A DNA stretch of 64,000 nucleotides. Origin: Patescibacteria group bacterium. Its GTDB lineage: Bacteria > Patescibacteriota > Patescibacteriia > XYB2-FULL-38-15. The stretch spans positions 71,891 to 135,890 of the forward strand of contig JBAZJZ010000001.1 in the NCBI GenBank assembly GCA_041650995.1, in the 5' to 3' direction. This document shows, one piece after another, positions 3,100 to 63,072 of the stretch (its first letter is position 1; the number at the start of each line of letters is the position of its first letter). Under the pieces are notes generated by a model, which saw only the letters and a program-made list of their open reading frames with translations, had not been told where the DNA came from and made no database searches. A program made the position numbers and the translations under genes.

Positions 3100-4014
3100 A
3101 TGTTCTCGGCGTTATTACGTATTCTAAAATTTTCTTCTCAGGATTTCTGGAGAAATTTTTGGCTTTCCACGGCCACGATAGTAGTTTTGGTTTTGACATT
3201 GGTTTCCATAAATTTTTTAATAACTTTGAATTTTTTGACGAAAACTGCGGTAGCCGAAGTGGAAAATAAAATTGATGTCAGTATTTATTTTAAGCAGGGA
3301 GTGGCGGAAAGCGAAATCGGAAATATAAAATCATATCTTCTAAGTTTATCTACAGTGAAGGGCGTGAAATATGTTTCGCCCGAAGAAGCACTCCGAGAAT
3401 TTGAAAAAAAACATAAAAACGACGCGATAATTAAAGAATCGCTTGAAGAAGTCGGAGAAAATCCCCTGGGAGCGACGCTTGTAATCCGGGCGCATAACAC
3501 GGCGGATTATCCGGAGATTTTGAAAGTTTTTGACGCCGCGCAATACGTCAATATTATTCAAGAGAAAAATTTTGAAGATCACGAAGTCGTAATTAAAAAA
3601 ATTGATTCCATTTCGGAAAAAGCAAAGACAACAGGTGCGGGTCTCGCCGGACTTTTCGCCGTGATCGCGGTTTTGATCGGGTTTAACACGGTCCGTATGA
3701 CGATCTACACGCATCGCGAAGAAATTGGGGTGATGAAATTAGTCGGCGCGGCCAACTGGTTTGTCCGGGCGCCTTATGTCGCGAGCGGAATTTTTTACGG
3801 AATTTTTGCCGTGCTTTTCACGGTTTTAATTACCTTTCCGGCAATCGGTTTTGCCGAGCCGTATTTGGCAGGATTTTTCGGCGGTTCAGAATTCAATTTA
3901 CTCGGATATTTTTCAAATAATTTTCTGCAGATTTTTGGCTGGCAGTTTGTGGGCGTAGTTCTTCTGAATATGGTGACAAGCAGTCTGGCGGTCGGCCGGT
4001 ACTTGAAAGTTTAA
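3100..4014 (+). CDS. ftsX: cell division permease FtsX
   Basis: 304 aa; N-terminal TM, large extracytoplasmic domain, three C-terminal TM helices typical of the FtsX-like permease family; follows ftsE. Confidence 0.85.
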   Translation: MFSALLRILKFSSQDFWRNFWLSTATIVVLVLTLVSINFLITLNFLTKTAVAEVENKIDVSIYFKQGVAESEIGNIKSYLLSLSTVKGVKYVSPEEALREFEKKHKNDAIIKESLEEVGENPLGATLVIRAHNTADYPEILKVFDAAQYVNIIQEKNFEDHEVVIKKIDSISEKAKTTGAGLAGLFAVIAVLIGFNTVRMTIYTHREEIGVMKLVGAANWFVRAPYVASGIFYGIFAVLFTVLITFPAIGFAEPYLAGFFGGSEFNLLGYFSNNFLQIFGWQFVGVVLLNMVTSSLAVGRYLKV

Positions 4015-4030: not shown

Positions 4031-4058
4031 TACAGACAAGCTGAAATGTCTGTTTTTT
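4031..4058 (+). terminator. rho-independent terminator after ftsX
   Basis: acagacaagctgaaatgtctgt followed by ttttttt. Confidence 0.7.
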
Positions 4059-4065
4059 TATTTCA

Positions 4066-4139
4066 TTCCGGGATCGTCTAATGGCAGGACAGCAGCCTTT
4101 GAAGCTGTTTATCTTGGTTCGAATCCAAGTCCCGGAGCC
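4066..4139 (+). tRNA. tRNA-Gln (anticodon TTG)
   Basis: TCCGGGATCGTCTAATGGCAGGACAGCAGCCTTTGAAGCTGTTTATCTTGGTTCGAATCCAAGTCCCGGAGCCA; anticodon loop CTTTGAA; encoded CCA. Confidence 0.85.
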
Positions 4140-6566: not shown

Positions 6567-7235
6567 ATGAAGTTGAATGTTTTATATGAAGATAATCATT
6601 TGATCGTGGTGGAAAAACCAGCTGGGATGCTTGTGCAAGGAGATAAAACTGGTGATCCCTGTTTAATGGATGAAGTAAAAAAATATTTGAAAGAAAAATA
6701 TAAAAAATCGGGCAATGTTTTTTTGGGACTTGTGCATCGGCTGGATCGTCCGGTCGGCGGTGTCGTGCTTTTTGCGAAGACGGGCAAAGGTGCCTCAAGG
6801 CTCTCTGCGCAGTTTCGCGAGCGAAGTGTGGAAAAATATTATTTTGCGGTTGTCGTCGGAAAAATGAAAGAGAAAAGCGGCAAGATTGTAAGTTTTTTGA
6901 AAAAAGATGAAAAGAAAAACGTTGCAGAAGTTTTTACGTGCGAAGTGCCCGGAACAAAACGCGCTGAGCTTTTTTGGGAACAAGTTTCTTCCGGCAAAGA
7001 AAATTCACTTTTAAAAATAAAATTGGGAACAGGCCGGACGCACCAGATTCGCGCTCAGCTTGCTTCGATTAATCATCCGATTTTGGGCGATGTAAAATAT
7101 GGCGCGCCAAAACCTCTGCCCGATAAATTTATTGCTCTTTTTGCCGCTTCACTTTCTTTTAAATTGGCCACGCAAGATGAGGCCAAAACGATTGAACTTC
7201 CTTGGCCAAAAGTTTGGGAAAAATATTTAAATTAA
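6567..7235 (+). CDS. RluA-family RNA pseudouridine synthase
   Basis: Catalytic motif LVHRLDRPVGGVVLFAKT and HQIRAQLA; the start is taken at the ATG at 6567 because the upstream in-frame extension overlaps the preceding gene. Confidence 0.8.
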   Translation: MKLNVLYEDNHLIVVEKPAGMLVQGDKTGDPCLMDEVKKYLKEKYKKSGNVFLGLVHRLDRPVGGVVLFAKTGKGASRLSAQFRERSVEKYYFAVVVGKMKEKSGKIVSFLKKDEKKNVAEVFTCEVPGTKRAELFWEQVSSGKENSLLKIKLGTGRTHQIRAQLASINHPILGDVKYGAPKPLPDKFIALFAASLSFKLATQDEAKTIELPWPKVWEKYLN

Positions 7236-9028: not shown

Positions 9029-9598
9029 GTGATGGAGGAGAGGAAAGTCGGCTGGGGAGACCGGGTATTAAAACCGATCGTCAAGCGAATCCCATCCTGG
9101 ATCAAGCCCAATCACTTGACCTACGTTCGCGCTGCGATGGTTGCGCCCGTGGTCGCCTGCCTTTGGTATGGCTTGAACATTCTAGCGGTGGTTTTTCTTT
9201 CTGTAGCCGTGTTGCTGGACGCGTTGGACGGCGCCATGGCACGAATCCGAAATCACCAGACTTCAAATGGCGAGTGGCTCGACGCTTACGCTGACAAGCT
9301 GCTTATCGTTGGATTGCTTCTGAGCTATGGCTGGGATCACTTCCCGCCAGTGCTCATCTGGCTCGTCTTCACGGTTGAAATTGTCCTTTGCCTTGGCCGG
9401 CCAATTAAAATCCAGCTCGGCAAATCGGGCAAGGCCAACGTTTTCGGCAAGATCAAGATGTGGCTACAGAGCGCGGCTGTCATTGGACTTGCGGCGCATG
9501 CCGACTGGACGCTTGTCGTTGCCAACGTCGCTCTTTGGGCGGCGCTTGGTTTCGCCGCGTTGAGTCTCGCTGGCCACATTTGGGACATTGCCGCATGA
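9029..9598 (+). CDS. CDP-alcohol phosphatidyltransferase family protein
   Basis: DALDGAMAR-x8-G-x3-DAYADK matches the D-G-x2-A-R...G-x3-D-x3-D motif; multi-TM; GC content clearly higher than the flanking genes. Confidence 0.65.
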   Translation: MMEERKVGWGDRVLKPIVKRIPSWIKPNHLTYVRAAMVAPVVACLWYGLNILAVVFLSVAVLLDALDGAMARIRNHQTSNGEWLDAYADKLLIVGLLLSYGWDHFPPVLIWLVFTVEIVLCLGRPIKIQLGKSGKANVFGKIKMWLQSAAVIGLAAHADWTLVVANVALWAALGFAALSLAGHIWDIAA

Positions 9599-17740: not shown

Positions 17741-17846
17741 AAAAAGAGAGGCCCGTCCGCAATTAGGATTTAGAGTCCTATTCGCAGGCAGACCTCAATG
17801 GGTGGGATAGAAGAGTCCCGAGAATCGAGACTCAGGCGGGAACGAA

Positions 17847-18101
17847 CTAGTAGAGATCGTCGGCGGGATCCTCGAGCTGCCCGCCGGTGGCGAGCAGTCG
17901 GATGTGGTCATCATCGCTGGCCCAGGCGATCGCGCGGTCGCGGTCGCGGGTCTGGCGCCAGACACCGTCGGGGTCCCTCTCCAGGTCGGCGGGGTCGTCC
18001 TCGCCGTCCTCACCACGCAGATCGGGCGGAAGCAGTTCGCGCAGTTCCTCGGACAGTTCGCCGCGGTTCAAGTCGCACTCCGCGAAACGTCGGCAAGCCA
18101 T
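17847..18101 (-). CDS. small acidic protein (about 84 aa) with high-GC, Actinobacteria-like codon usage; probable foreign gene or gene fragment
   Basis: MACRRFAECDLNRGELSEELRELLPPDLRGEDGEDDPADLERDPDG...; the three codon positions are strongly periodic (GC1 about 80%, GC2 about 50%, GC3 about 80%) in a genome that is otherwise about 38% GC; SD ggaaggagg sits 8 nt upstream. Confidence 0.4.
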   Translation of the reverse strand: MACRRFAECDLNRGELSEELRELLPPDLRGEDGEDDPADLERDPDGVWRQTRDRDRAIAWASDDDHIRLLATGGQLEDPADDLY

Positions 18102-18240
18102 TCTTCCCACTCCTCCTTCCCAACTCCGCTCGGATGAGCGAAGTGATGACCTCCTCCTGATAGCCATCCAGTTGCGTAGAAATTTTTTTCTAACCAACTG
18201 GATAATTATCAGGTTTATCCGCCGAAAAGGCGGGATTTTT

Positions 18241-18500
18241 AAAAAAAGTAGGGGCTTCAAGACTCGCGTCCATCCACCCCCTTGTCATCGCATTGCGCGA
18301 TATCTTCCCGTTACGGGAAGGGCATTCGGCTTTCCTCCCTCTGCTTGATGCGGGTGTCTGCCGCTGAATGTGGTCCAGAACACCCTGGTAGTGGCCTTGG
18401 CGGCTGCCAGCAGCGATAGCGTAATTTCGCCATCACCGTGGTCAGCGCCTTGGCCGTTTGCAATGCCTCATCGCCGTGACAGAGCTTCCCCACGTTCGGT
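18241..18500 (-). ncRNA. candidate structured ncRNA A (about 255 nt), GC-rich, identity unknown
   Basis: Minus-strand promoter TTGACA(17)TAAAGT from the 18529 palindrome; GC-rich body; ends with GGGG...CCCC hairpin plus U7 (plus-strand a7 at 18241-18247); a 74-aa ORF overlaps it, so a small protein cannot be excluded. Confidence 0.3.
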
Positions 18501-18528
18501 GCCTTTACTTTAACATATTTTAATAATT

Positions 18529-18548
18529 TTGTCAAGAGTTGTTGACAA
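18529..18548. promoter_or_regulatory. palindrome TTGTCAA-N6-TTGACAA (copy 1), providing a -35 TTGACA on both strands
   Basis: ttgtcaagagttgttgacaa; a perfect 7-bp inverted repeat with a 6-nt spacer; the identical motif recurs at 19868-19887. Confidence 0.55.
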
Positions 18549-50054: not shown

Positions 50055-50132
50055 GGCCTCATCGTCTAGCCTGATCTAGGACGCCTCCCTCTCACGGAGG
50101 AAACTCGGGTTTAAATCCCGATGGGGCTACCA
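50055..50132 (+). tRNA. tRNA-Glu (anticodon CTC)
   Basis: ...CGCCTCCCTCTCACGGAGG... anticodon arm CCTCC/GGAGG with loop CTCTCAC, T-arm TCGGGTTTAAATCCCGA, encoded CCA; the exact 5' end of the acceptor stem is ambiguous (wobble pairs). Confidence 0.6.
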
Positions 50133-51806: not shown

Positions 51807-51881
51807 AGTTTTGGAGCCAACTGAAAAGTTGGTTTTTGTATTTTCCCCTCTTAAGATAAGAGGGGATTAAGAGGAGGGAAC

Positions 51882-51910
51882 TTGACAAAATTTTATAGTT
51901 ATGTTATAAA
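51882..51910 (+). promoter_or_regulatory. consensus sigma70 promoter (TTGACA-17-TATAAA) driving the GC-rich ncRNA C; paralogous over about 30 nt to the minus-strand promoter at 18505-18536
   Basis: cTTGACAAAATTTTATAGTTATGTTATAAAAG versus (minus strand) cTTGACAAAATTATTAAAATATGTTAAAGTAAAG. Confidence 0.6.
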
Positions 51911-51916
51911 AGATAC

Positions 51917-52727
51917 GATACGGTGAAATGCCGTAAGCGGCTGGGTCCAAGAGGACGCCTTGGCTCTATCTGGCTCTTCATGCCACTGCGCAATGGATTG
52001 CGTGGTGGAATAATCTCCGCCCGTAAGGGAAAAATTAAAAAGCGAAGAAAGGGAGAAAAAGCGTCAATACCGGGCGCAAACAATCCGGTCTTGGCGCCAT
52101 GAAGATTCAGGAGATCTAAGGAGAGAGGGTTTGATTCCCTCCAGCCGCACTGGGTCTTGGTGGTAGCCGAGCAGCGGATTTCTGCATTGCTCACTGCGAT
52201 GTGGAAGGCCGACGGCAGCCATTGTGGGGTACGCGCTGCGAACCCCGCCATCAAGGCCAAAGATGGCGACTGACCTTGAATGGCAGTCGTCGATTCCTCG
52301 CTGACCTTCAAGAGTTGGCGAGCAGGGACTCTCTCTGCCAAGGGAGGGTCCGCCTGAAGCTTCCGCGAGCCTCGGCTCGCGTTGGCACAAAGTTGCGATC
52401 GCACAGCTCTGGTCATGGCTACCATGGGGATTTCCCCGAAAGCCTAAGTGCGATCGCGGCTCGCGACGTTCCATAGGGAGACGCTCGCGTTTCCTGAAGT
52501 TTCCCAGTCTCGTGCTGGGCGGAACGGCGCGGAATTTCAGCCCCCGGCGGACTTGCCCGCGCGATGGCGCTCGCATGCGTGAGCACGCGAAAAAGGCAAG
52601 TGTGGGTACCCCGGCTCTTCTGCGCCGCCCAGAAGAGCCACTTCAAAAGATCCTCTAAGCGCAGTTCGCTGCGCGGAGAGGTCTGCGATACGCGCCGTGA
52701 TGATTCATTCGTCACGGCGTTCTTTTT
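51917..52727 (+). ncRNA. candidate large structured ncRNA C (about 810 nt), GC-rich, with an embedded tRNA-like acceptor/T-arm domain; identity unknown
   Basis: GC much higher than the genome; only short overlapping ORFs in all frames with junk-like translations; 5' GCGGCTG (51937-51943) pairs perfectly with CAGCCGC (52142-52148) next to a T-arm GAGGG-TTTGATT-CCCTC; bounded by a promoter and a strong terminator. Confidence 0.5.
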
Positions 52728-52728
52728 T
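52693..52728 (+). terminator. intrinsic terminator of ncRNA C
   Basis: cgccgtgatgattcattcgtcacggcg followed by ttctttttt. Confidence 0.7.
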
Positions 52729-52738
52729 ATCTCTAATC

Positions 52739-52766
52739 TTGACAAAAAATAGAAAAGGACTATGAT
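52739..52766 (+). promoter_or_regulatory. sigma70 promoter (TTGACA-16-TATGAT) upstream of the SPFH gene
   Basis: TTGACA at 52739-52744, TATGAT at 52761-52766. Confidence 0.5.
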
Positions 52767-54763: not shown

Positions 54764-55294
54764 ATGGCAGACGATAAACAAAAACCAGAAGAAAAAAAAG
54801 ACGCGGCGCTCTCGGAATTGGAAGCGTGTAAAAAACAAGCTGAAGAATATTTAAATGGTTGGAAGCGGGCCAAGGCGGATTATTTGAATTTGAAAAAAGA
54901 AAATGAAACAGCCAGCGCGGAATTGGCGCAATTTATCGCGGGCGGAATGTTAATGAAATTTTTGCCGGTTTATGATGGTTTGAAGCGCGCATGTCAGATT
55001 ATGCCTTCGACAAGCTCAGGCAATAACTCTTTATCCCCTGAGCGAGCGGAGCGAGTCGAAGGGTGGGCCGAGGGAATTTTAAACATTAAAAAACAATTTG
55101 AAGAAGTTTTTAAAAGTTTTGGCGTGGAAGAAATAAAAACCATCGGAGAAAAATTCAATCCGGAATTTCACGAAGCGATCAGCCGGCAGAAAAAAGATGG
55201 GGTTGAATCCGATATAATTATTGAAGAAGTCGGCGGCGGGTATATGATGAACGGAAAAACGATTATTCCGGCGAAAGTAATTGTCAGCGAATAA
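54764..55294 (+). CDS. grpE: nucleotide exchange factor GrpE
   Basis: Coiled-coil N-terminus, YLNGWKRAKADYLNLKKE, C-terminal beta-domain; synteny with dnaK. Confidence 0.85.
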   Translation: MADDKQKPEEKKDAALSELEACKKQAEEYLNGWKRAKADYLNLKKENETASAELAQFIAGGMLMKFLPVYDGLKRACQIMPSTSSGNNSLSPERAERVEGWAEGILNIKKQFEEVFKSFGVEEIKTIGEKFNPEFHEAISRQKKDGVESDIIIEEVGGGYMMNGKTIIPAKVIVSE

Positions 55295-55757: not shown

Positions 55758-57425
55758 ATGAACTTGCCAGAGCCTCTGCATAAACAATTTTCTAATCTCA
55801 TGGATGATATCCAAACGGGGAGGTTGAAGATACCTCAGTTTCAAAGAGAATTTGTTTGGGATATAAAAAAATCAGCAAGCCTACTCGATAGTATAATTAA
55901 AGGATATCCAGTTGGTACTTTTATTTTTTGGAAAACAAAAGATAGATTAAGATCTGTTAAAGATATAGGCAATCTGAATCTTCCAGAGCCGGCCGTCGGT
56001 GATTATGTTAATTTTGTCTTAGATGGTCAGCAACGAATTACCAGTCTTTTCGCTGCATTTAAGGGAGAAAAAATATTGAGAAGCGATGGAAAAACAGAGG
56101 ATTTTTCAGAAATATATATTGATTTAGACGCGAAGGAAGACGAAAAAATAGTTACTTCAGAGGTTGACGACGGGAATTCAAAAAATTTAATAAAATTAAA
56201 GGATTTGCTATATGGGGGAATTACATTTCTCGCCAAATATCCAGAAAACTACCTGCATAAACTTGAAGAATACAAAAAGAGAATTGAATCTTATAATTAT
56301 TCCGTGATACAGGTTAATGAAGTACCCATAGATGTTGCTACTGAAATTTTTACAAGAATCAATGTTGGTGGTAAGCCACTGTCGTTATTTGAAATTATGG
56401 TTGCAAAGACATATGACTATGACAAAAATTTTGAACTTTCTGAAAAATTTGATGCCCTAGTTGAAAATTTAAAAAATGTTAATTACGAAACTATTTCTGA
56501 TGCAACGGTATTACAGATTATTTCTTTAATATTAACAAAAGAATGCAAGAGAAAAATTATTTTAAAATTGAAGAAAGATGAATTTATTGACAAGTGGGAC
56601 GAAGTTGTAAACGCAATCGAAAGCGCGGTGGATTACTTTAGAAGTTTCTACAGAATTCCTGTTTCGCAGATACTGCCGTATAATGCTTTGCTTGTGCCAT
56701 TTTCATATTTTTTCTACTACCATAAGGACAAACCGACCGGAGACAAACAAAAATACCTTCAAGATTTTTTTTGGCGAGTATCTTTATCCGGTAGATATTC
56801 ATCGTCGGTTGAAAGTAAATTAGCGCAGGACATTAAGAGAATAGATAAAATTTTAGAAGATAAATTACCGGATTATGACTGGCCAATTAATTTATCGCCC
56901 GAATTCATAAAAAATAATGGCTGGTTTAGCGCCGGCAGAAGTTATATAAAAGCAATATTATGTATCTATGCCTATCACCAGCCAAAATCTTTTAACGACA
57001 ACTCACTTGTAAATATTAGTAATTACTGGTTAAAACAAGCGAATAGCAAAAATTATCATCATTTTTTTCCACGTGCCTATTTAAGTAGATTGAATAAAGA
57101 TGAAAAAATGATAAATCATATAGCTAACATAACTATTGTCGACGATTTTCTTAATAAAAGAGAAATTAAAGATAAGCCGCCATCCAAGTACATGGAAAAA
57201 TTTAAAAAAGAAAACCCTCATCTTTCAGAAACAATGAAAACCCACCTGATTAATGATATTGATAATATGGGAATTTGGGAAGATAATTATGAATTGTTTT
57301 TTGAAAAAAGAATTGAATCGATTAGTAAGGATATTGAAAAAAGAATAATCCCACAAGAAATTGATGGGAAACCACAGGCTGATTTATCGGATGATGACTC
57401 CGTAGAAAGTTCAGAACAAGAATAG
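55758..57425 (+). CDS. DUF262 (ParB-like NTPase) plus DUF1524 (His-Me finger nuclease) fusion protein, GmrSD-like type IV modification-dependent restriction enzyme
   Basis: N-terminal IPQFQREFVWD (DGQQR-type DUF262 motif region, LDGQQRITSL present) and C-terminal NYHHFFPRAYL...NHIANITIV HNH-like DUF1524 block; inserted between hsp20 and dnaK. Confidence 0.6.
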   Translation: MNLPEPLHKQFSNLMDDIQTGRLKIPQFQREFVWDIKKSASLLDSIIKGYPVGTFIFWKTKDRLRSVKDIGNLNLPEPAVGDYVNFVLDGQQRITSLFAAFKGEKILRSDGKTEDFSEIYIDLDAKEDEKIVTSEVDDGNSKNLIKLKDLLYGGITFLAKYPENYLHKLEEYKKRIESYNYSVIQVNEVPIDVATEIFTRINVGGKPLSLFEIMVAKTYDYDKNFELSEKFDALVENLKNVNYETISDATVLQIISLILTKECKRKIILKLKKDEFIDKWDEVVNAIESAVDYFRSFYRIPVSQILPYNALLVPFSYFFYYHKDKPTGDKQKYLQDFFWRVSLSGRYSSSVESKLAQDIKRIDKILEDKLPDYDWPINLSPEFIKNNGWFSAGRSYIKAILCIYAYHQPKSFNDNSLVNISNYWLKQANSKNYHHFFPRAYLSRLNKDEKMINHIANITIVDDFLNKREIKDKPPSKYMEKFKKENPHLSETMKTHLINDIDNMGIWEDNYELFFEKRIESISKDIEKRIIPQEIDGKPQADLSDDDSVESSEQE

Positions 57426-60856: not shown

Positions 60857-61053
60857 ATTTTATCATTTTAATTGTAAAAATCGTTGCTAAATATCGGCGG
60901 CGGTTTTTTTATTTAAAACTCTTGACAAAACAGAGAAAAAACATTTAAGTATAGTGAGGTTTGCCCAATAGCGGGTAGGCTCGCCTTGCCGTCTAGGCAG
61001 GCTTCGTTCCTTTGAAATTCGCTTCTTGGCCATTGGGCCAAAGGAGAGAAACA

Positions 61054-63072
61054 ATGAAAAAGGTGGTTGTCCTTTTCGTTCTGGTATTCGGGCTCATCCG
61101 AACGGCTTCCGCTTCGGCGGATCAGCCTGCCGATGAGACAGGGGAATCCCAGACCTACCTTGTCCAATGGGGAGATCGGCTGCCTCGGGTGGCAGCGCAA
61201 TTCGGTTTGACCCAGGAAGAGCTTTTGGCAGCCAATCCGCGCTCGGCCTATGGGATGAGCTGCGGTAATCCGCACACAGTCACGTTGCGTAATGGCGAAC
61301 GCCAAGCTCTCTGCGGTCGGCCAAGGCCATACCTCATTGCCGGCAAGACGCTTGTCATTCCCGTGCCCCGCGCCACGCTCCAGACTGAGAGTGTTCGGCT
61401 GAACGCCGAAGTTGTGGCGCTCCGCGCGGAGATGGCTCAATTGCGGAAGGCGCGCGAGACGGAGAAGTCCGAGCTTGCGGCCCTCGCGCAGGAACGCGAC
61501 AATCTCCAGAGCGAGAACGAATCGCTCGTTGCCGCGAAGGCTGAGCTTCAAGGCAAGTACAGCGAATCCCAGGCGGACTTCCGGGCGGTGTTTTCCCGAC
61601 AGCCGAAGCAGATTGAAGTTCAGAAGACGAATTTCAACCACATCGTTTTGGCAGTTGCCGTCACCGCTTTCGTGTTTGTGCTCATCATTCTCGCCATCTT
61701 GTCCCGCAAGGGCAAGAACGAGAAGAAGTTTGATCGCCTTGTCCGGCTTGTCCAGCCGAGCGTTTTGGAACAGGCCGAGAAGAACAAGCAGCGCGGCGCA
61801 GAGCTTGACCAACTAGCGAAGGAACTCGATCAACAGAAGCGAGAGGCAGACGACCTGCAAGCCAAACTGCAAGAGCAGAAGAGCGAGCAGGAGCGTTTGG
61901 GCAATGATCTTGCGACGCGCGAGGCAACCCTGAAGCGGGAGCAAGAAGAACTTGCCACGGCGAAGCGAGCCGTGGAAGAAAGGGAAGCTTTCTGCACCCG
62001 CCGTGATGACGAAATTCATGAAGCCGAGCGCGGACTCCTGGAACGCAGCGAAGCTTTCCGCGGGCATGTCCGGGCCGAAGAAGAACGCCTGAGAACAGAG
62101 AGCGTTGCTGTCGCGCGCGGCAAGGAAGAATTCCTTGCTGCACAGCGCGATCTGGAAGAGAAGAGAGCGCAGGTTGAAGCTGGATTGCGGACTCTTGAAG
62201 AAGATAGTCCCGCGATCCAGAGAGACAGGGAAGAAGCTGATCGGCGCGTCAGAGAAGCCGAGACTCGCGAGGAGAGTGCGAAGCGCGCCGCGGAAGACGC
62301 GGCGCAACGCGTCAGAGAAGCCGAGACTCGCGAAGCTGCGGCCACGAGACAGACAGAAGAAGCAGAAAGTCGAAAGGGCGCCGCAGACGAAGCAGAGAGG
62401 ATTCTCGCTCGCCGCGAAGAGGAAGTTGGGGGCAGGGAAGAAGAACTGCACCGGCTTCAAGATCAACTGAGACAGGAACGAACCGACTTCGAAGGGCAGC
62501 TTGGAGCGGCAGAACATACGCTTGAAGCTGCTGGCGGACTTGAGAAGGCAAAACGCATCATCAGCCGCGCCAAGCGCAAGGAAGAAATTGTTGCGGCTCT
62601 TGATAAGCGGGAGGTAGCTATTGCCGACCGCGAAGAAGTGTGCGCCCACCGCGAACACGAACTCGCCCTTTGGGCAGCGCAACTCGGAGCTCTGGAGGAC
62701 GACACTTCAGACGGGGAGGAAACCGTTCAGCGGCTTACCTTGGGAGCGGATGACACTTTTCAGGACGCCGCTGGGAGCATCACTTGCGCGGCTTGCGGCG
62801 GGAAATTTCCCGATCGCGGCGCGTTCGACGCGCACAAGGCGAGTTGCCCCAAAGCCGCGCCACACACACCGACTATTGTCGGGGCTCCGGCAGGAGGGCG
62901 GGCATCGGTTGTAGCGCCTCCTCCCAAACCGGTCCCGGGTGAGACTGTTCATGACTCTTCGTCGTCTGAACCCGTAGTCTACTGCCAACACTGCAAGGAG
63001 GGGTTTTCTCCCGAGGTCTACGCAGCAGAACACGCAACACACGACGAGGGATTGGCAGGAAAGAAGGGCTAA
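61054..63072 (+). CDS. GC-rich secreted/membrane-anchored LysM - TM - long coiled-coil - tandem C2H2-like zinc-finger protein (compositional outlier, probable horizontal acquisition)
   Basis: 672 aa at about 60% GC versus about 38% for the genome; signal peptide; LysM-like YLVQWGDRLPRVAAQFGLTQEELLAANP...IAGKTLVIP; TM LAVAVTAFVFVLIILAIL; E/R/A-rich coiled coil with repeated REAETRE units; C-terminal CAACGGKF..H....C and CQHCKEGF...H..H motifs. Confidence 0.6.
   Translation: MKKVVVLFVLVFGLIRTASASADQPADETGESQTYLVQWGDRLPRVAAQFGLTQEELLAANPRSAYGMSCGNPHTVTLRNGERQALCGRPRPYLIAGKTLVIPVPRATLQTESVRLNAEVVALRAEMAQLRKARETEKSELAALAQERDNLQSENESLVAAKAELQGKYSESQADFRAVFSRQPKQIEVQKTNFNHIVLAVAVTAFVFVLIILAILSRKGKNEKKFDRLVRLVQPSVLEQAEKNKQRGAELDQLAKELDQQKREADDLQAKLQEQKSEQERLGNDLATREATLKREQEELATAKRAVEEREAFCTRRDDEIHEAERGLLERSEAFRGHVRAEEERLRTESVAVARGKEEFLAAQRDLEEKRAQVEAGLRTLEEDSPAIQRDREEADRRVREAETREESAKRAAEDAAQRVREAETREAAATRQTEEAESRKGAADEAERILARREEEVGGREEELHRLQDQLRQERTDFEGQLGAAEHTLEAAGGLEKAKRIISRAKRKEEIVAALDKREVAIADREEVCAHREHELALWAAQLGALEDDTSDGEETVQRLTLGADDTFQDAAGSITCAACGGKFPDRGAFDAHKASCPKAAPHTPTIVGAPAGGRASVVAPPPKPVPGETVHDSSSSEPVVYCQHCKEGFSPEVYAAEHATHDEGLAGKKG

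Follow-up and report, generated by a model that had tools for sequence, protein, structure and literature searches.

Results

A separate transcription unit between yidC and the SPFH gene

We analyzed a 64-kb stretch of Patescibacteria DNA (the window), in which a GC-rich region separates yidC from a gene for an SPFH protein. The upstream flank encodes a 239-aa YidC (PF02096 was found on its homologues), and the downstream flank encodes a 193-aa SPFH/Band_7 protein (PF01145). Between them lies a unit at 51,882-52,728, whose predicted RNA covers 51,911-52,728 of the plus strand (~810 nt); we call this variant W and the loci of relatives L001, L002 and so on. The GC content was 0.50-0.65 over 51,900-52,700 versus 0.27-0.42 in the flanks (background ~0.38; window mean 0.419), in agreement with the sequence-only reading that this analysis followed up. 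The remaining GC-rich islands of the window are protein-coding and unrelated to the W RNA. The unit is delimited by four elements:

51813..51836, plus strand: intrinsic terminator of yidC, the left boundary of the RNA locus (terminator scan; a similar hairpin and T-run follow yidC in every relative)
51882..51910, plus strand: near-consensus sigma-70-type promoter, TTGACA-17 nt-TATAAA (TTGAC(A/G/T)...TA(T/W)AA(A) is equivalently placed in 14/14 variants)
52692..52728, plus strand: intrinsic terminator of W, with a 12-bp stem, a 5-nt loop and a T-run (terminator scan)
52739..52766, plus strand: promoter of the SPFH gene, outside the RNA, TTGACA-16-TATGAT, 11/12 matches (promoter scan)

The promoter (TTGACA 51882-51887, 17-nt spacer, TATAAA 51905-51910) and the terminator (12-bp stem 52692-52720, then a T-run) were both found where the earlier reading had placed them; our promoter scan left this promoter out because it demands a T at the last -10 position. 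A near-identical terminator, with compensatory changes, occurs in L002, L003, L004, L023 and L039. In L035, where the site is empty, the yidC terminator is immediately followed by the same SPFH promoter. Since the SPFH gene has a separate promoter at 52739..52766, the RNA is a unit of its own.

An SPFH-hrcA-grpE-hsp20 heat-shock cluster follows the W RNA immediately downstream on the same strand. With this placement, the RNA might be a cis-acting leader (an RNA thermometer or attenuator) for the cluster. However, the terminator with its 12-bp stem and T-run and the 11/12-match promoter separate the RNA from SPFH, L015, L018 and L035 have the operon without the element, and 0.4-1.4 kb is too long for such a role, far exceeding any leader known to us. 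We find a leader function scarcely credible.

Several origins of the element were rejected. The sequence CTTGACAAAA, repeated at both ends, is not a target-site duplication: it belongs to two similar promoters as their -35 region, and relatives do not have it consistently in duplicate. A multi-copy or mobile element was rejected, as no further copy of any module was seen in the 64-kb window or the flanks. A phage origin was dropped on BLAST and viral motif scans. BLAST of the RNA against phages returned no match, and two of the three viral motif scans were empty; the third gave three matches, of which two lay in high-GC coding DNA and the last, L046, is not homologous, scoring 9.3 bits (E=1.3) with the domain model at z = -1.5. 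Only ordinary phage tRNA-Pro genes were met when a T-arm/acceptor probe was run against viral contigs.

The W RNA encodes no protein

The sequence-only reading had described nothing but short junk ORFs in this region. Junk was correct and short was not, as overlapping ORFs of 173, 170 and 108 aa occupy the minus strand. These ORFs are without codon periodicity (phase spread 0.11 versus 0.118 +/- 0.022 in shuffles), whereas the GC-rich coding islands of the same window have a local phase spread of 0.27-0.40. The W ORFs gave no meaningful Pfam match (the sole match was DUF1122, E=0.38), and no relative of the 170-aa ORF was present among 5.8 billion predicted proteins. Therefore, we regard the three ORFs as spurious. 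A search with junk ORFs for closer relatives of the W-private segments found nothing. The W RNA encodes no protein, and a decayed GC-rich gene was rejected because neither codon periodicity nor protein homology was found. Gene callers set hypothetical proteins on this region and tRNA finders give suppressor-like or undetermined tRNAs; for both, the region is an annotation trap.

Predicted fold of the RNA

The plus strand folded with an MFE of -393.9 kcal/mol versus -318 +/- 6 for shuffles (z = -12.6), the minus strand gave z = -3.9, and only the plus strand has a T-run after the terminator hairpin. The strand asymmetry was also seen by segment (z-scores below). With this fold, and with a promoter and terminator recurring in 14/14 variants, the features picked out from the sequence exceed chance and describe an RNA gene that stands alone, has a promoter and a terminator of its own, codes for no protein and is highly structured. 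Its parts are as follows:

51919..51935, plus strand: leader hairpin, set off by 1 nt from the tRNA-like domain (RNAalifold pairs, alignment A1)
51937..52149, plus strand: tRNA-like (tmRNA-shaped) domain (covariation of W versus L006)
52060..52098, plus strand: hairpin with the conserved loop GCGCAAACAAU, holding most of a 9-codon frame (helix 11 of A1, 12 pairs)
52153..52258, plus strand: long hairpin just 3' of the tRNA-like domain, closed by GGUCUUGGUGG / CCAUCAAGGCC (z = -3.8 on the plus and -0.4 on the minus strand)
52263..52345, plus strand: two W-private hairpins (no BLAST match in any relative; z = -2.7 on the plus and -0.9 on the minus strand)
52356..52532, plus strand: conserved central core, family-defining (A3 covariation, covariance model R2)
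52536..52640, plus strand: W-private hairpins, including a near-perfect 13-bp hairpin at 52613-52639 (inverted repeat I5; z -1.4 and -4.3)
52649..52692, plus strand: conserved 3' module, a hairpin CCUCU...GCGCAG-loop-CUGCGC...AGAGG followed by UCUGCGAUAC (A4, homology)

Hairpins of the form CGGCAG-loop-CUGCCG, homologous to the leader hairpin, lie 5' of the tRNA-like module in L002, L003, L006 and L039. The closing stem GGUCUUGGUGG / CCAUCAAGGCC has counterparts in L004, L005, L006, L030, L039 and L042, with 81/81 cells paired and covariation at positions 6-11; the interior of that hairpin is private to W. No homologue of roughly 52,534-52,640 was found in the relatives. In all, ~290 nt of the W RNA are without a detectable homologue, so the structure predicted for the W-private parts has thermodynamics as its basis, and two sub-segments were not significantly stable (z = -0.4 and -1.4).

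A family of variants at a single chromosomal site

Thirteen further distinct variants, of 395-1,450 nt predicted length, occupy this yidC-SPFH site in MAGs of related Patescibacteria and in metagenome contigs. Their conserved blocks are collinear, and a promoter and a terminator are present at all 14 variants of the locus; the RNA is predicted to run from its own strong promoter to its own terminator, both conserved throughout. The family has so far been found only between yidC and the SPFH gene, in one Patescibacteria clade related to Candidatus Falkowbacteria. The sample of 14 variants is phylogenetically narrow, and most tests used 2-10 sequences. The site is empty in L015, L016, L018-20 and L035/36; as one of these empty-site relatives is equally close, the RNA is dispensable or, failing that, not bound to this site.

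Fourfold-type sites of yidC are 39-65 % identical to W (near saturation), and despite this the RNA blocks are 85-93 % identical. The same near-saturation of synonymous sites led us to reject the idea that near-identical strains differ by a hypervariable mosaic. The genomes are related at the level of species to genus, and the similarity of the SPFH protein simply reflects its strong conservation.

The central core consists of a block AAGCUUCC-hairpin-GUUGGCA-NN-AAGUUGCG, a helix GCGAUCGC.../...GCGAUCGC that encloses an insert, and a further helix CGCGACGUUCC.../...GGAACGGCGCG. In the core alignment A3 (7 sequences), 94.9 % of the cells of 39 pairs were paired and 10 pairs were changed on both sides. 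The covariation score was reached by 0/500 shuffles, a control that related sequences without structure can beat, but slid partners were only 34-48 % paired, which argues against that here. The core model R2 scored 151 bits on W, in a single copy in the window, and recovered 5 variants outside its training set at 24-79 bits; it had no match in the empty-site loci. The 3' module is homologous to ACUUCC...GGAAGUC-GCGAUAC of other variants and is present in 10/14, W among them; its alignment A4 (6 sequences) holds 26 pairs including the terminator, 4 of them changed on both sides. Judged from these alignments, the central core and the 3' hairpin module are under purifying selection, with compensatory base changes. 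No single element is universal, since the core model has no match in L042 and L021, and W is without a three-way-junction 3' domain that 10 relatives have. The RNA is modular, and from species to species the peripheral helices are freely replaced.

These data bear on whether the region is merely a non-functional GC-rich remnant, or a graveyard of tRNA fragments and palindromes, transcribed via a captured duplicate of the SPFH promoter. Such a remnant is hard to reconcile with blocks that stay 85-93 % identical while synonymous sites approach saturation, with compensatory helix changes well above controls, with a promoter and a terminator kept in 14/14 variants, or with a high GC content kept up by a genome-reduced lineage of 42 % GC; the lack of any codon periodicity counts against a recently decayed gene. 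In favor of a remnant, further GC-rich islands of seemingly foreign origin occur in the window, close relatives lack the element, both ends carry the -35 region CTTGACAAAA, and ~290 nt of W are private. Many of the hairpins are near-perfect, and young palindromic DNA, too, typically has hairpins that are near-perfect and very stable. We consider a remnant improbable.

The tRNA-like domain and its sister modules

The domain has a 7-bp acceptor-like stem (GCGGCTG 51937-51943 with CAGCCGC 52142-52148), a D-like hairpin at 51945-51956 with a 4-bp stem and a 4-nt loop but without GG elbow residues, a T-arm (GAGGG-TTTGATT-CCCTC, 52125-52141) and an unpaired discriminator A at 52149. A branched helix replaces the anticodon arm (insert about 150-190 nt), and the 9-codon frame GCA AAC AAT CCG GTC TTG GCG CCA TGA is at 52076-52102. 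The acceptor-like stem, T-arm, unpaired A and frame all lie at the positions first reported for them. The domain is a genuine tRNA-like one with a conserved fold: between W and L006 (A1), all 66 predicted pairs were intact (100 % paired in both), with 5 both-sided and 11 one-sided changes, versus 37-50 % paired and 0-1 both-sided changes in the slid-partner controls. A second tRNA-like subtype has 10 covarying pairs. When W is folded together with its relatives, helices covary in the core, the tRNA-like domain and the 3' module.

Most variants start at the 5' end with one or two tRNA-shaped modules, which are absent from L001, L009 and L021. The modules keep the acceptor stem, the T-arm and usually the D-arm; across 12 modules, the acceptor and T-arm either do not vary or covary. 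The anticodon arms are unconstrained, with loops of 4, 6, 7 or 8 nt or inserts of 80-190 nt. The relatives' modules score 27-62 bits as tRNA; ARAGORN reported 2-nt or 4-nt "anticodons" in L003b, L030, L039 and L042, UCA in L003a and CUC in L004, and L005 has an insert. No canonical cloverleaf tRNA, in which a sense anticodon sits in a loop of 7 nt, was found in W or among the relatives' modules, and neither ARAGORN nor the Rfam tRNA and tmRNA models found a tRNA or tmRNA in W. The discriminator plus CCA follows 5/12 modules, and the next conserved helix begins 3-4 nt later, an indirect sign of possible cleavage at the modules. Beyond what had been noticed from W alone, the tRNA-like part is optional, and the defining core lies mid-RNA (52,356-52,532) and not in the tRNA-like domain.

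The domain could instead be a tRNA gene with a divergent group I intron, the splicing of which gives a normal tRNA. Group I introns are frequent in Patescibacteria tRNA anticodon loops, and some are invisible to RF00028 and ARAGORN (PMC13011429). With introns allowed, ARAGORN read the L005 module as a tRNA-Ala(ggc) with a 71-nt insert; however, with the intron limit at 400 nt it detected no tRNA in either W or L006, and Intron_gpI (RF00028) had no match at E<=10. The inserts (about 150-190 nt in W, 71-80 nt in L005) are small for group I introns. The W insert folds as an anticodon-stem extension with side hairpins rather than as a P3-P9 core, and the W D-arm, with its 4-bp stem, 4-nt loop and missing GG, differs from that of a tRNA. 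In sister modules without an insert, the anticodon loops measure 4, 6 or 8 nt, so that none would yield a functional tRNA. Because of the insert size, the fold and the lack of a restored tRNA, we rejected the group I intron, which we hold to be very unlikely.

The domain also has the topology of a tmRNA, with an acceptor stem and T-arm that close a long helix. In W, a pseudoknot-like CUCC...GGGAG element, possibly a counterpart of PK1, and an A-rich stretch precede GCA AAC..., which recalls the resume context of E. coli tmRNA. Positions 51,937-52,149 might therefore be a reduced tmRNA or a paralogue that is charged and adds the tag (G)ANNPVLAP, with the 580 nt downstream as a removed trailer. 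At an 80 % threshold, ARAGORN called positions 27-240 of the transcript tmRNA-like with the tag GANNPVLAP, but at this setting its calls were unreliable, overlapping on both strands and giving a different, non-homologous tag in L006. Default ARAGORN was negative on the window, loci and transcripts, and the best Rfam trace was a 10-bit beta_tmRNA match to the 17-nt T-arm only. G3-U70 is the alanine identity element of all known tmRNAs; however, W, L006 and every other insert-type module have G-C as their third acceptor pair (GCGGCUG/CAGCCGC in W and L006, GAGGCUG/CAGCCUC in L008, L023, L030 and L042, GCGGCCG/CGGCCGC in L039). The W domain has no CCA (A-CUG follows). Moreover, the tag frame reads ANNPVLAP* in W versus TNNPDLAP* in L006. 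Neither substitution is silent: V becomes D through one half of a compensatory A-U to U-A exchange in helix 11, and A becomes T, at the resume codon, through a change in the loop. The other insert-type modules share no stretch homologous to the W tag frame. The tmRNA-like domain is missing from L001, L004, L009 and L035 and so cannot be the lineage's essential ssrA. The sequence-only reading had judged that classic tmRNA does not fit, and this held (G3-C70, no conserved tag, no ARAGORN or Rfam detection); its candidate of a tmRNA with large insertions failed on the G-C third acceptor pair and on a frame that is not conserved as coding. We give the tmRNA explanation very little credence.

Known RNA families

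For the window and L001-L006, Rfam 15 was run with gathering thresholds; for W, L021, L009 and L002, the cutoff was E<=10. No family matched W, even at E<=10; the scans returned tRNA-like modules only, plus chance matches far below threshold. GOLLD, ROOL, OLE, raiA and HEARO appeared neither in the gathering scans nor in the E<=10 scans of the four variants. The earlier suggestion of a divergent RNase P RNA, that is, an rnpB with insertions, drew some appeal from a GC-rich gene with the predicted architecture of a strongly expressed stable RNA, and in some relatives (L003, L009) AAGUCCGGG upstream and UUCCGGRC downstream might form a P4-like pseudoknot. However, bacterial RNaseP had no match at E<=10 in the four variants, where the only trace was a 10-bit archaeal RNase P match in L002. 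Both P4-like motifs, AAGUCCGGG and UUCCGGRC, are missing from W, and the window gave no match to the model of that domain. The element is absent from the yidC-SPFH site in close relatives (L015, L016, L018-20, L035/36), and its sequence turnover is far faster than expected of rnpB. On the Rfam results and the missing motifs, we rejected RNase P RNA as extremely unlikely.

Discussion

We propose that W is a gene for a large structured non-coding RNA of an undescribed, clade-restricted and dispensable family, with tRNA mimics as processing handles, a reading to which we assign a probability of roughly 0.6. A novel large ornate RNA with a tRNA-like module as processing signal had already been among the candidates of the sequence-only reading; we favor it and infer its processing part. 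The tRNA-like modules would not decode but would be handles for the tRNA-maturation machinery. RNase P would cut on their 5' side, and RNase Z, or exonucleases together with the CCA-adding enzyme, would act on their 3' side. Cleavage would free three products: the leader, the tRNA mimic as a stable RNA, and a GC-rich core RNA of ~580 nt that starts at the GGUCUU hairpin. The ~810-nt primary transcript is probably cut into such pieces rather than kept as one stable RNA, with the tRNA mimics as the probable handles for RNase P and RNase Z. Since L001, L009 and L021 have no tRNA-like module, processing is not essential to the core RNA.

A second reading, which we hold possible but rather doubtful, is that this giant modular RNA of a CPR lineage works intact. 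It would be either a GOLLD/ROOL-like, RNA-only assembly or particle that shows covalently linked tRNA mimics, or a decoy for tRNA-binding or tRNA-cleaving proteins (e.g., in phage/host conflict), the targets of which could include anticodon nucleases (phage or toxin). On this reading, W's tmRNA-shaped domain would be a mimic derived from tRNA-Ala/tmRNA, with its alanine identity lost. The size, the ornate structure, the conserved core with a variable 5' region, the tRNAs in or beside the RNA and the dispensability all parallel GOLLD (PMC12286853), although no sequence or structure match to GOLLD, ROOL or OLE was found. The mimics keep the elbow and acceptor with scrambled anticodon loops, as a non-decoding decoy would need. 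A GmrSD restriction gene lies 3 kb downstream of W, a weak point in favor of a decoy; however, housekeeping genes flank the site, with no defense island, the viral scans were negative or not significant, with no phage association, and three variants have no tRNA mimic.

To our knowledge, new classes of large ornate bacterial RNA are rare, the main ones being OLE, GOLLD, ROOL, HEARO and raiA. Each such class has opened unexpected biology, most recently RNA-only nanocages. We know of almost nothing on the non-coding RNA of CPR bacteria, whose genomes, as far as we know, are under strong reductive pressure. That a 0.4-1.4 kb GC-rich RNA is kept under a consensus promoter despite this pressure implies a real benefit. 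The family joins two themes that are usually separate, large structured RNA and non-decoding tRNA mimics.

Comparison with known systems

Like GOLLD (RF01998) and ROOL (RF03087), W is a large (0.5-0.8 kb and above), ornate, stand-alone and tRNA-associated bacterial RNA; unlike them, it has no Rfam match at E<=10. GOLLD has a conserved region plus a 5' region of lower conservation, with tRNAs sometimes in the linker, and ROOL is non-essential (PMC12286853). Both are mostly encoded by phages or prophages (of Bacillota, Actinomycetota and others), whereas the W family occupies one chromosomal site in a CPR clade and was not found in the viral collections searched. Moreover, the elements linked to GOLLD and ROOL are functional tRNAs, whereas those of the W family are non-decoding tRNA mimics. 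If the RNA acts intact, it would be a second, independent tRNA-linked giant RNA to set beside GOLLD.

The resemblance to tmRNA (SsrA, RF00023, clan CL00001) lies in W and L006, where the acceptor and T-arm close a long helix without an anticodon arm, and where a putative pseudoknot-like element and an A-rich linker come before the GCA AAC... stretch. Unlike tmRNA, W has G3-C70, no CCA, no conserved tag frame and no PK2-PK4, and its domain is dispensable, measures ~212 nt and is set within a longer RNA. tmRNAs are usually ~260-400 nt.

YrlA is a bacterial non-coding RNA of ~100-130 nt, encoded beside rsr (Ro60) and rtcB, with a tRNA-like part inside the Ro-binding stem. W shares with it a non-decoding tRNA-like module that mimics the acceptor, T-arm and D-arm; however, no rsr lies near W, the size and architecture are entirely different, and there is no Rfam match. 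The intron-containing tRNA genes of Patescibacteria come from the same phylum and likewise escape standard annotation through a large insert in the anticodon arm. In those genes, which are otherwise ordinary ones for tRNA-Asn, Asp, Met, Phe, Tyr or Thr, the inserts are group I introns that splice themselves and sit at positions 33-37 (PMC13011429). By contrast, the W insert is a helical extension without a group I core, and the uninterrupted sister modules have no usable anticodon.

MALAT1/mascRNA provides a precedent for a tRNA-like processing signal, as do the t-elements of plant mitochondria (PMC1920247). Like both, the W modules are non-decoding tRNA shapes within a longer non-tRNA transcript, in which the predicted acceptor/T-arm stack and elbow are kept and the anticodon arm is unconstrained. 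In t-elements and mascRNA, cleavage by RNase P and RNase Z has been demonstrated and sets the ends of the neighboring RNA; in the W family the same cleavage is proposed, for mimics that retain the parts recognized by RNase P, RNase Z and the CCA-adding enzyme. The known systems are organellar or eukaryotic and release an mRNA, whereas the W family is bacterial and would release a large structured non-coding RNA. If processing occurs at the mimics, the W family would be a bacterial counterpart of mitochondrial t-elements and MALAT1/mascRNA.

Features of the locus

The RNA locus of the window lies between genes for a 239-aa YidC and a 193-aa SPFH/Band_7 protein, and its GC content is 0.50-0.65 over 51.9-52.7 kb compared with 0.27-0.42 in the flanks and 0.419 in the window, which agrees with the sequence-only reading that the region is richer in GC than its surroundings. 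The positions proposed there for the promoter, terminator, acceptor-like stem, T-arm, unpaired A and nine-codon frame were all confirmed.

Features of the RNA locus
51,882-51,887 and 51,905-51,910, +, promoter TTGACA and TATAAA with a 17-nt spacer (read from the sequence)
51,919-51,935, +, leader hairpin
51,937-52,149, +, tRNA-like domain
51,937-51,943 with 52,142-52,148, +, acceptor-like stem, GCGGCTG with CAGCCGC (read from the sequence)
52,076-52,102, +, nine-codon frame GCA AAC AAT CCG GTC TTG GCG CCA TGA (read from the sequence)
52,125-52,141, +, T-arm GAGGG-TTTGATT-CCCTC (read from the sequence)
52,149, +, unpaired A after the acceptor stem (read from the sequence)
52,153-52,258, +, long hairpin with a shared closing stem and a private interior
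52,263-52,345, +, two hairpins private to the window RNA
52,356-52,532, +, conserved core
52,536-52,640, +, private hairpins 3′ of the core
52,649-52,692, +, conserved 3′ hairpin module
52,692-52,728, +, terminator, 12-bp hairpin then T-run (terminator scan)

A structured, noncoding RNA

The plus strand of the locus (814 nt) folded at -393.9 kcal/mol against -318 +/- 6 kcal/mol for dinucleotide shuffles, giving a z-score of -12.6 compared with -3.9 for the minus strand, and the earlier noncoding-RNA call held in this check. Successive plus-strand segments had z-scores of -3.8, -2.7, -2.7, -0.4, -1.4 and -4.3. The first two fell to -0.4 and -0.9 on the minus strand, an asymmetry that is the signature of G-U pairs, and only the plus strand carries a T-run 3′ of the terminator hairpin. 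The locus is a structured RNA of the plus strand. About 290 nt of it (transcript 249-432 and 624-730, approximately window 52,159-52,342 and 52,534-52,640) had no detectable homologue, and the structure of these parts is a purely thermodynamic prediction.

The sequence-only reading had found only short ORFs; the region did prove noncoding, but its ORFs are not all short, since those overlapping the RNA on the minus strand reach 173, 170 and 108 aa. Between codon phases, GC had a local spread of 0.11, where shuffles gave 0.118 +/- 0.022 and the three GC-rich coding islands of the window 0.27-0.40. The long minus-strand ORFs had no meaningful Pfam match, and the 170-aa ORF had zero relatives among 5.8 billion predicted proteins. 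The region is not coding.

In public records the RNA is overlaid by automatically called genes, mostly on the minus strand, for hypothetical proteins of 86-209 aa without a Pfam hit; these calls are systematic mis-annotations.

Gene calls overlying the RNA in relatives, mostly on the minus strand
L038, 849-1714
L039, 4271-4900
L040/L041, ~3390-3900
L042, 3855-4262

Other genes and GC-rich islands of the window

A further GC-rich island (17750-18530), where GC reaches 0.70 in a genome of 42 % GC, was probably acquired horizontally. It contains at least one small acidic ORF (17850-18110, minus strand, 87 aa, MACRRFAECDLNRGELSEEL...), which has a Shine-Dalgarno sequence of its own, shows strong codon periodicity (0.80/0.45/0.80) and had no match in Pfam. 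Two more GC-rich (0.59-0.66) and clearly coding genes lie at 61012-63072 and 9029-9598; one encodes a 686-aa protein with a weak, sub-threshold LysM-like match and the other a 189-aa CDP-alcohol phosphatidyltransferase (PF01066), and their composition suggests that both may be of foreign origin. At 55758-57425, after hsp20, lies a gene for a restriction endonuclease of the GmrSD type (555 aa, with an N-terminal PF03235 domain at E=4e-31). Because dnaK (HSP70) occupies this position in the relatives L012 and L013, the GmrSD gene appears to be a defence gene that was inserted into the heat-shock cluster.

Relatives at the yidC-SPFH site

Through the flanking YidC and SPFH proteins and one conserved DNA motif, we retrieved related loci from Patescibacteria MAGs (one labelled Candidatus Falkowbacteria) and metagenome contigs. 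The GC-rich element was present in 14 distinct versions of the yidC-SPFH spacer, the window counted, and all 14 had the same promoter type and a terminator, with predicted transcripts of ~395 to ~1,450 nt. No RNA module recurred elsewhere in the window or flanks. At empty sites, yidC and the SPFH gene are 4 nt (L015/L016), 120 nt (L018-20) or 131 nt (L035/36) apart. Since the empty site L035 is as close to the window as the element-bearing L001-L004, the element has been gained or lost within the clade, and it can be dispensed with, or at any rate is not fixed at the site. A role as a cis-acting leader of the downstream heat-shock cluster is unlikely, because a strong terminator and a separate SPFH promoter lie between the RNA and that cluster and some relatives have the same heat-shock operon without the element.

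Several short metagenome contigs (L012-L014, L025, L027-L029 and L037) stop at the element position or no more than a few hundred nt away from it; the GC-rich structured region, or strain variation there, may break assemblies. In several relatives the spacer also holds a ~58-nt palindromic element, TCGACTACGCTACGCTTCGCTCAGGAAATAATTATGGCCTGAGCTTGTCGAAGG, which looks like a MITE-like repeat able to sit inside genes. Its window copy (83 % match) lies within the grpE ORF (54764-55294), apparently in frame (...SSGNNSLSPERAERVEG...).

Sites of the TCGACTACGCTACGCTTCGCTCAGGAAATAATTATGGCCTGAGCTTGTCGAAGG palindrome
L001, 6788-6843
L002, ~6770-6830
L008/L023, spacers
window, 55004-55061, -

A second repeat family, CCCCTCTTAAGATAAGAGGGGATTAAG(A/G)GGAG..., has a short copy within window 51840-51880 that forms a perfect 10-bp hairpin (51844-51866) immediately 5′ of the RNA promoter. 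The copy in the relative L009 is a ~100-nt long hairpin (1689-1788) 3′ of the RNA terminator and gives rise to spurious Rfam matches to microRNA precursors.

Selection and covariation

SPFH is ~95 % identical among relatives. A reading of the locus as a hypervariable mosaic between near-identical strains is wrong, as synonymous sites show deep divergence: between the window and 12 element-bearing relatives (L021 left out), fourfold-type synonymous identity was 39-65 % for yidC and 59-81 % for SPFH. At such divergence neutral DNA should be nearly unalignable. The RNA blocks nevertheless remain 85-93 % identical across relatives, which indicates purifying selection on them, and in every variant they are collinear; where alignment fails, ordinary divergence and indels account for it. 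Decaying foreign DNA was likewise rejected, given conservation above the neutral level, covariation and no codon periodicity.

For the core (52,356-52,532), RNAalifold gave 39 pairs in five helices on an alignment of seven sequences, with 94.9 % of cells paired and both sides changed in 10 pairs, a covariation score that 0 of 500 column shuffles reached; when the 3′ partners were slid by 1-3 columns, 34-48 % of cells were paired and 0-4 pairs had changed on both sides. A covariance model of the core scored 151 bits on the window RNA, its single copy in the 64-kb window, and recognized five variants on which it had not been trained (L003 79, L030 55, L039 40, L006 40 and L001 24.5 bits), with no match in the empty-site loci, L042 or L021.

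Compensatory change extends beyond the core. Between the window and the relative L006 (71 % identity), none of the 66 predicted pairs of the tRNA-like domain is broken in either sequence, while five have changed on both sides and 11 on one; slid controls left 37-50 % paired, with 0-1 pairs changed on both sides. The domain has a second subtype (L008, L023, L030 and L042), which retains the closing stem and terminal hairpin and has 10 covarying pairs. The 3′ module with the terminator has 26 pairs, four of them covarying, in six sequences. The stem directly 3′ of the tRNA-like module is paired in 81/81 cells across seven variants, with several pair types at positions 6-11, and encloses interiors that are unrelated between variants. 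Ten relatives have a three-way-junction domain (GGCAC-AAUCGG...CCGGUU-C-CGGGCC...GGCCUG-CU-GUGUC; 19 pairs, eight covarying) that is absent from the window RNA; its covariance model scored 49-123 bits, and L002 has a second copy.

In the relative L023 (~4040-4075, spacer ~720-750), a T-arm-like sequence, CCGGGTTCGATTCCCGG, replaces one variable hairpin of the three-way-junction domain, which suggests that tRNA fragments have been recruited repeatedly into the RNA.

Searches of known families

At gathering thresholds, Rfam 15 matched only nine ordinary tRNAs in the whole window, all away from the RNA. At E<=10 with permissive filters the RNA itself gave only chance matches far under threshold, the lone tmRNA trace being 10 bits over the 17-nt T-arm, and ARAGORN found neither a tRNA nor a tmRNA in it. 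The same permissive search of the relatives L021, L009 and L002 returned no bacterial RNase P, tmRNA, group I/II intron, GOLLD, ROOL or OLE. The proposed Rfam check thus matched no known family, and our literature searches found no description of this RNA. The family comprises few sequences with a narrow distribution.

A divergent RNase P RNA, one candidate of the sequence-only reading, was dropped, as Rfam was negative and the motifs of that RNA are absent from the locus. Group I introns located within genes for tRNAs are documented for Patescibacteria (PMC13011429); here such an intron was rejected, since there is no core, the insert size is unsuitable and no canonical tRNA is restored. A phage origin was unsupported, and 50,697 phage records held nothing resembling the RNA. 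One viral contig (L046, IMG/VR UViG_3300045988_081481, 147 kb) has a ~400-nt GC-rich, ORF-poor island at 1230-1610 in an AT-rich phage, with the short motif GGUUCCGGAC...CUGCGGUGUCC in common; this island was not homologous by covariance model (9.3 bits, E=1.3), its fold had no unusual stability (z-score -1.5) and it had no Rfam hit.

tRNA-like modules

Relatives have no tRNA-like module (L001, L009, L021), one or two. Regular modules combine an acceptor stem of 7 bp with a canonical D-arm (UAGCUCAGNGGNAGAGC) and a T-arm (GGAGGUUCAAAUCCUCC), and as tRNA they score up to 62 bits. The anticodon arms differ in every species: the "anticodons" called by ARAGORN have 2 nt (L003b, L039) or 4 nt (L030, L042), or read UCA (L003a) or CUC (L004), and the L005 module has a ~80-nt insert. 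In the extreme form, that of the window RNA and L006, a ~150-nt branched helix stands for the anticodon arm and the D-arm is cut to a 4-bp hairpin. A discriminator and CCA follow 5/12 modules, and CUA, CUG, CCG or CCU most others. The parts needed for decoding are not conserved; the features that the modules do conserve are precisely those recognized by RNase P, RNase Z and the CCA-adding enzyme.

The 5′ domain of the window RNA and L006 could be read as a tmRNA: its topology is tmRNA-like, the GCA AAC... stretch lies 3′ of an A-rich linker, and at an 80 % threshold ARAGORN called it tmRNA-like with the tag GANNPVLAP. However, at that threshold ARAGORN also made calls elsewhere that overlap and fall on both strands, and the tag it picked in L006 is not homologous; dedicated tmRNA detectors at default settings detected nothing. 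All variants have G-C as the third acceptor pair, and the domain is not followed by CCA, in line with the earlier judgment that a classic tmRNA does not fit. A tmRNA with large insertions, still a candidate at that stage, fares no better. The frame is not conserved, as it has two substitutions between the window and L006 and neither is synonymous. One turns the Ala of the would-be resume codon into Thr; the other, Val to Asp, is one side of an A-U to U-A change in a hairpin of 12 bp, within which the remaining frame largely lies. The domain is also missing from several relatives. We therefore argue against a tmRNA.

ARAGORN called the L005 module tRNA-Ala, and the regular modules resemble E. 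coli tRNA-Ala in the acceptor and D-arm. Given their G3-C70 pair, descent from tRNA-Ala or a tmRNA, with alanine identity lost, is plausible.

In one module of the relative L003 (6908-6982), labelled tRNA-SeC by ARAGORN, the 7-nt anticodon loop is intact and its anticodon, UCA, would read UGA; a second module, with a 6/8-nt loop, lies 27 nt downstream. If charged, the UCA module would act as an opal suppressor in an organism whose code seems to be standard in other respects. The tRNA-Glu(CUC) 5′ of yidC (window 50055-50132) has an unusual length of 78 nt, with its anticodon at position 37, scores only ~50 bits and is kept in all relatives (same position in L001-L006).

Possible processing and comparison with known RNAs

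Overall, our sequence analyses demonstrate a noncoding, structured RNA, separately transcribed as judged from its predicted promoter and terminator, that combines a conserved core with tRNA-shaped modules unable to decode. Probably RNase P and RNase Z excise these modules, which would release a leader, a stable mimic of a tRNA and, from the GGUCUU hairpin onward, a GC-rich RNA of ~580 nt. MALAT1/mascRNA is processed at its tRNA-like element in the same manner. We also liken the proposed processing to that of plant mitochondrial t-elements, tRNA-like elements that are cut by RNase P and RNase Z (PMC1920247). Alternatively, the RNA might act intact and display its tRNA mimics, much as display has been proposed for the tRNAs linked to GOLLD (PMC12286853). 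Whether cleaved, as we propose, or intact, the RNA resembles in kind the giant ornate RNAs of bacteria that are found with tRNAs and belongs to none of them; new here are its CPR host and its tRNA mimics, which are fused to it and do not decode.
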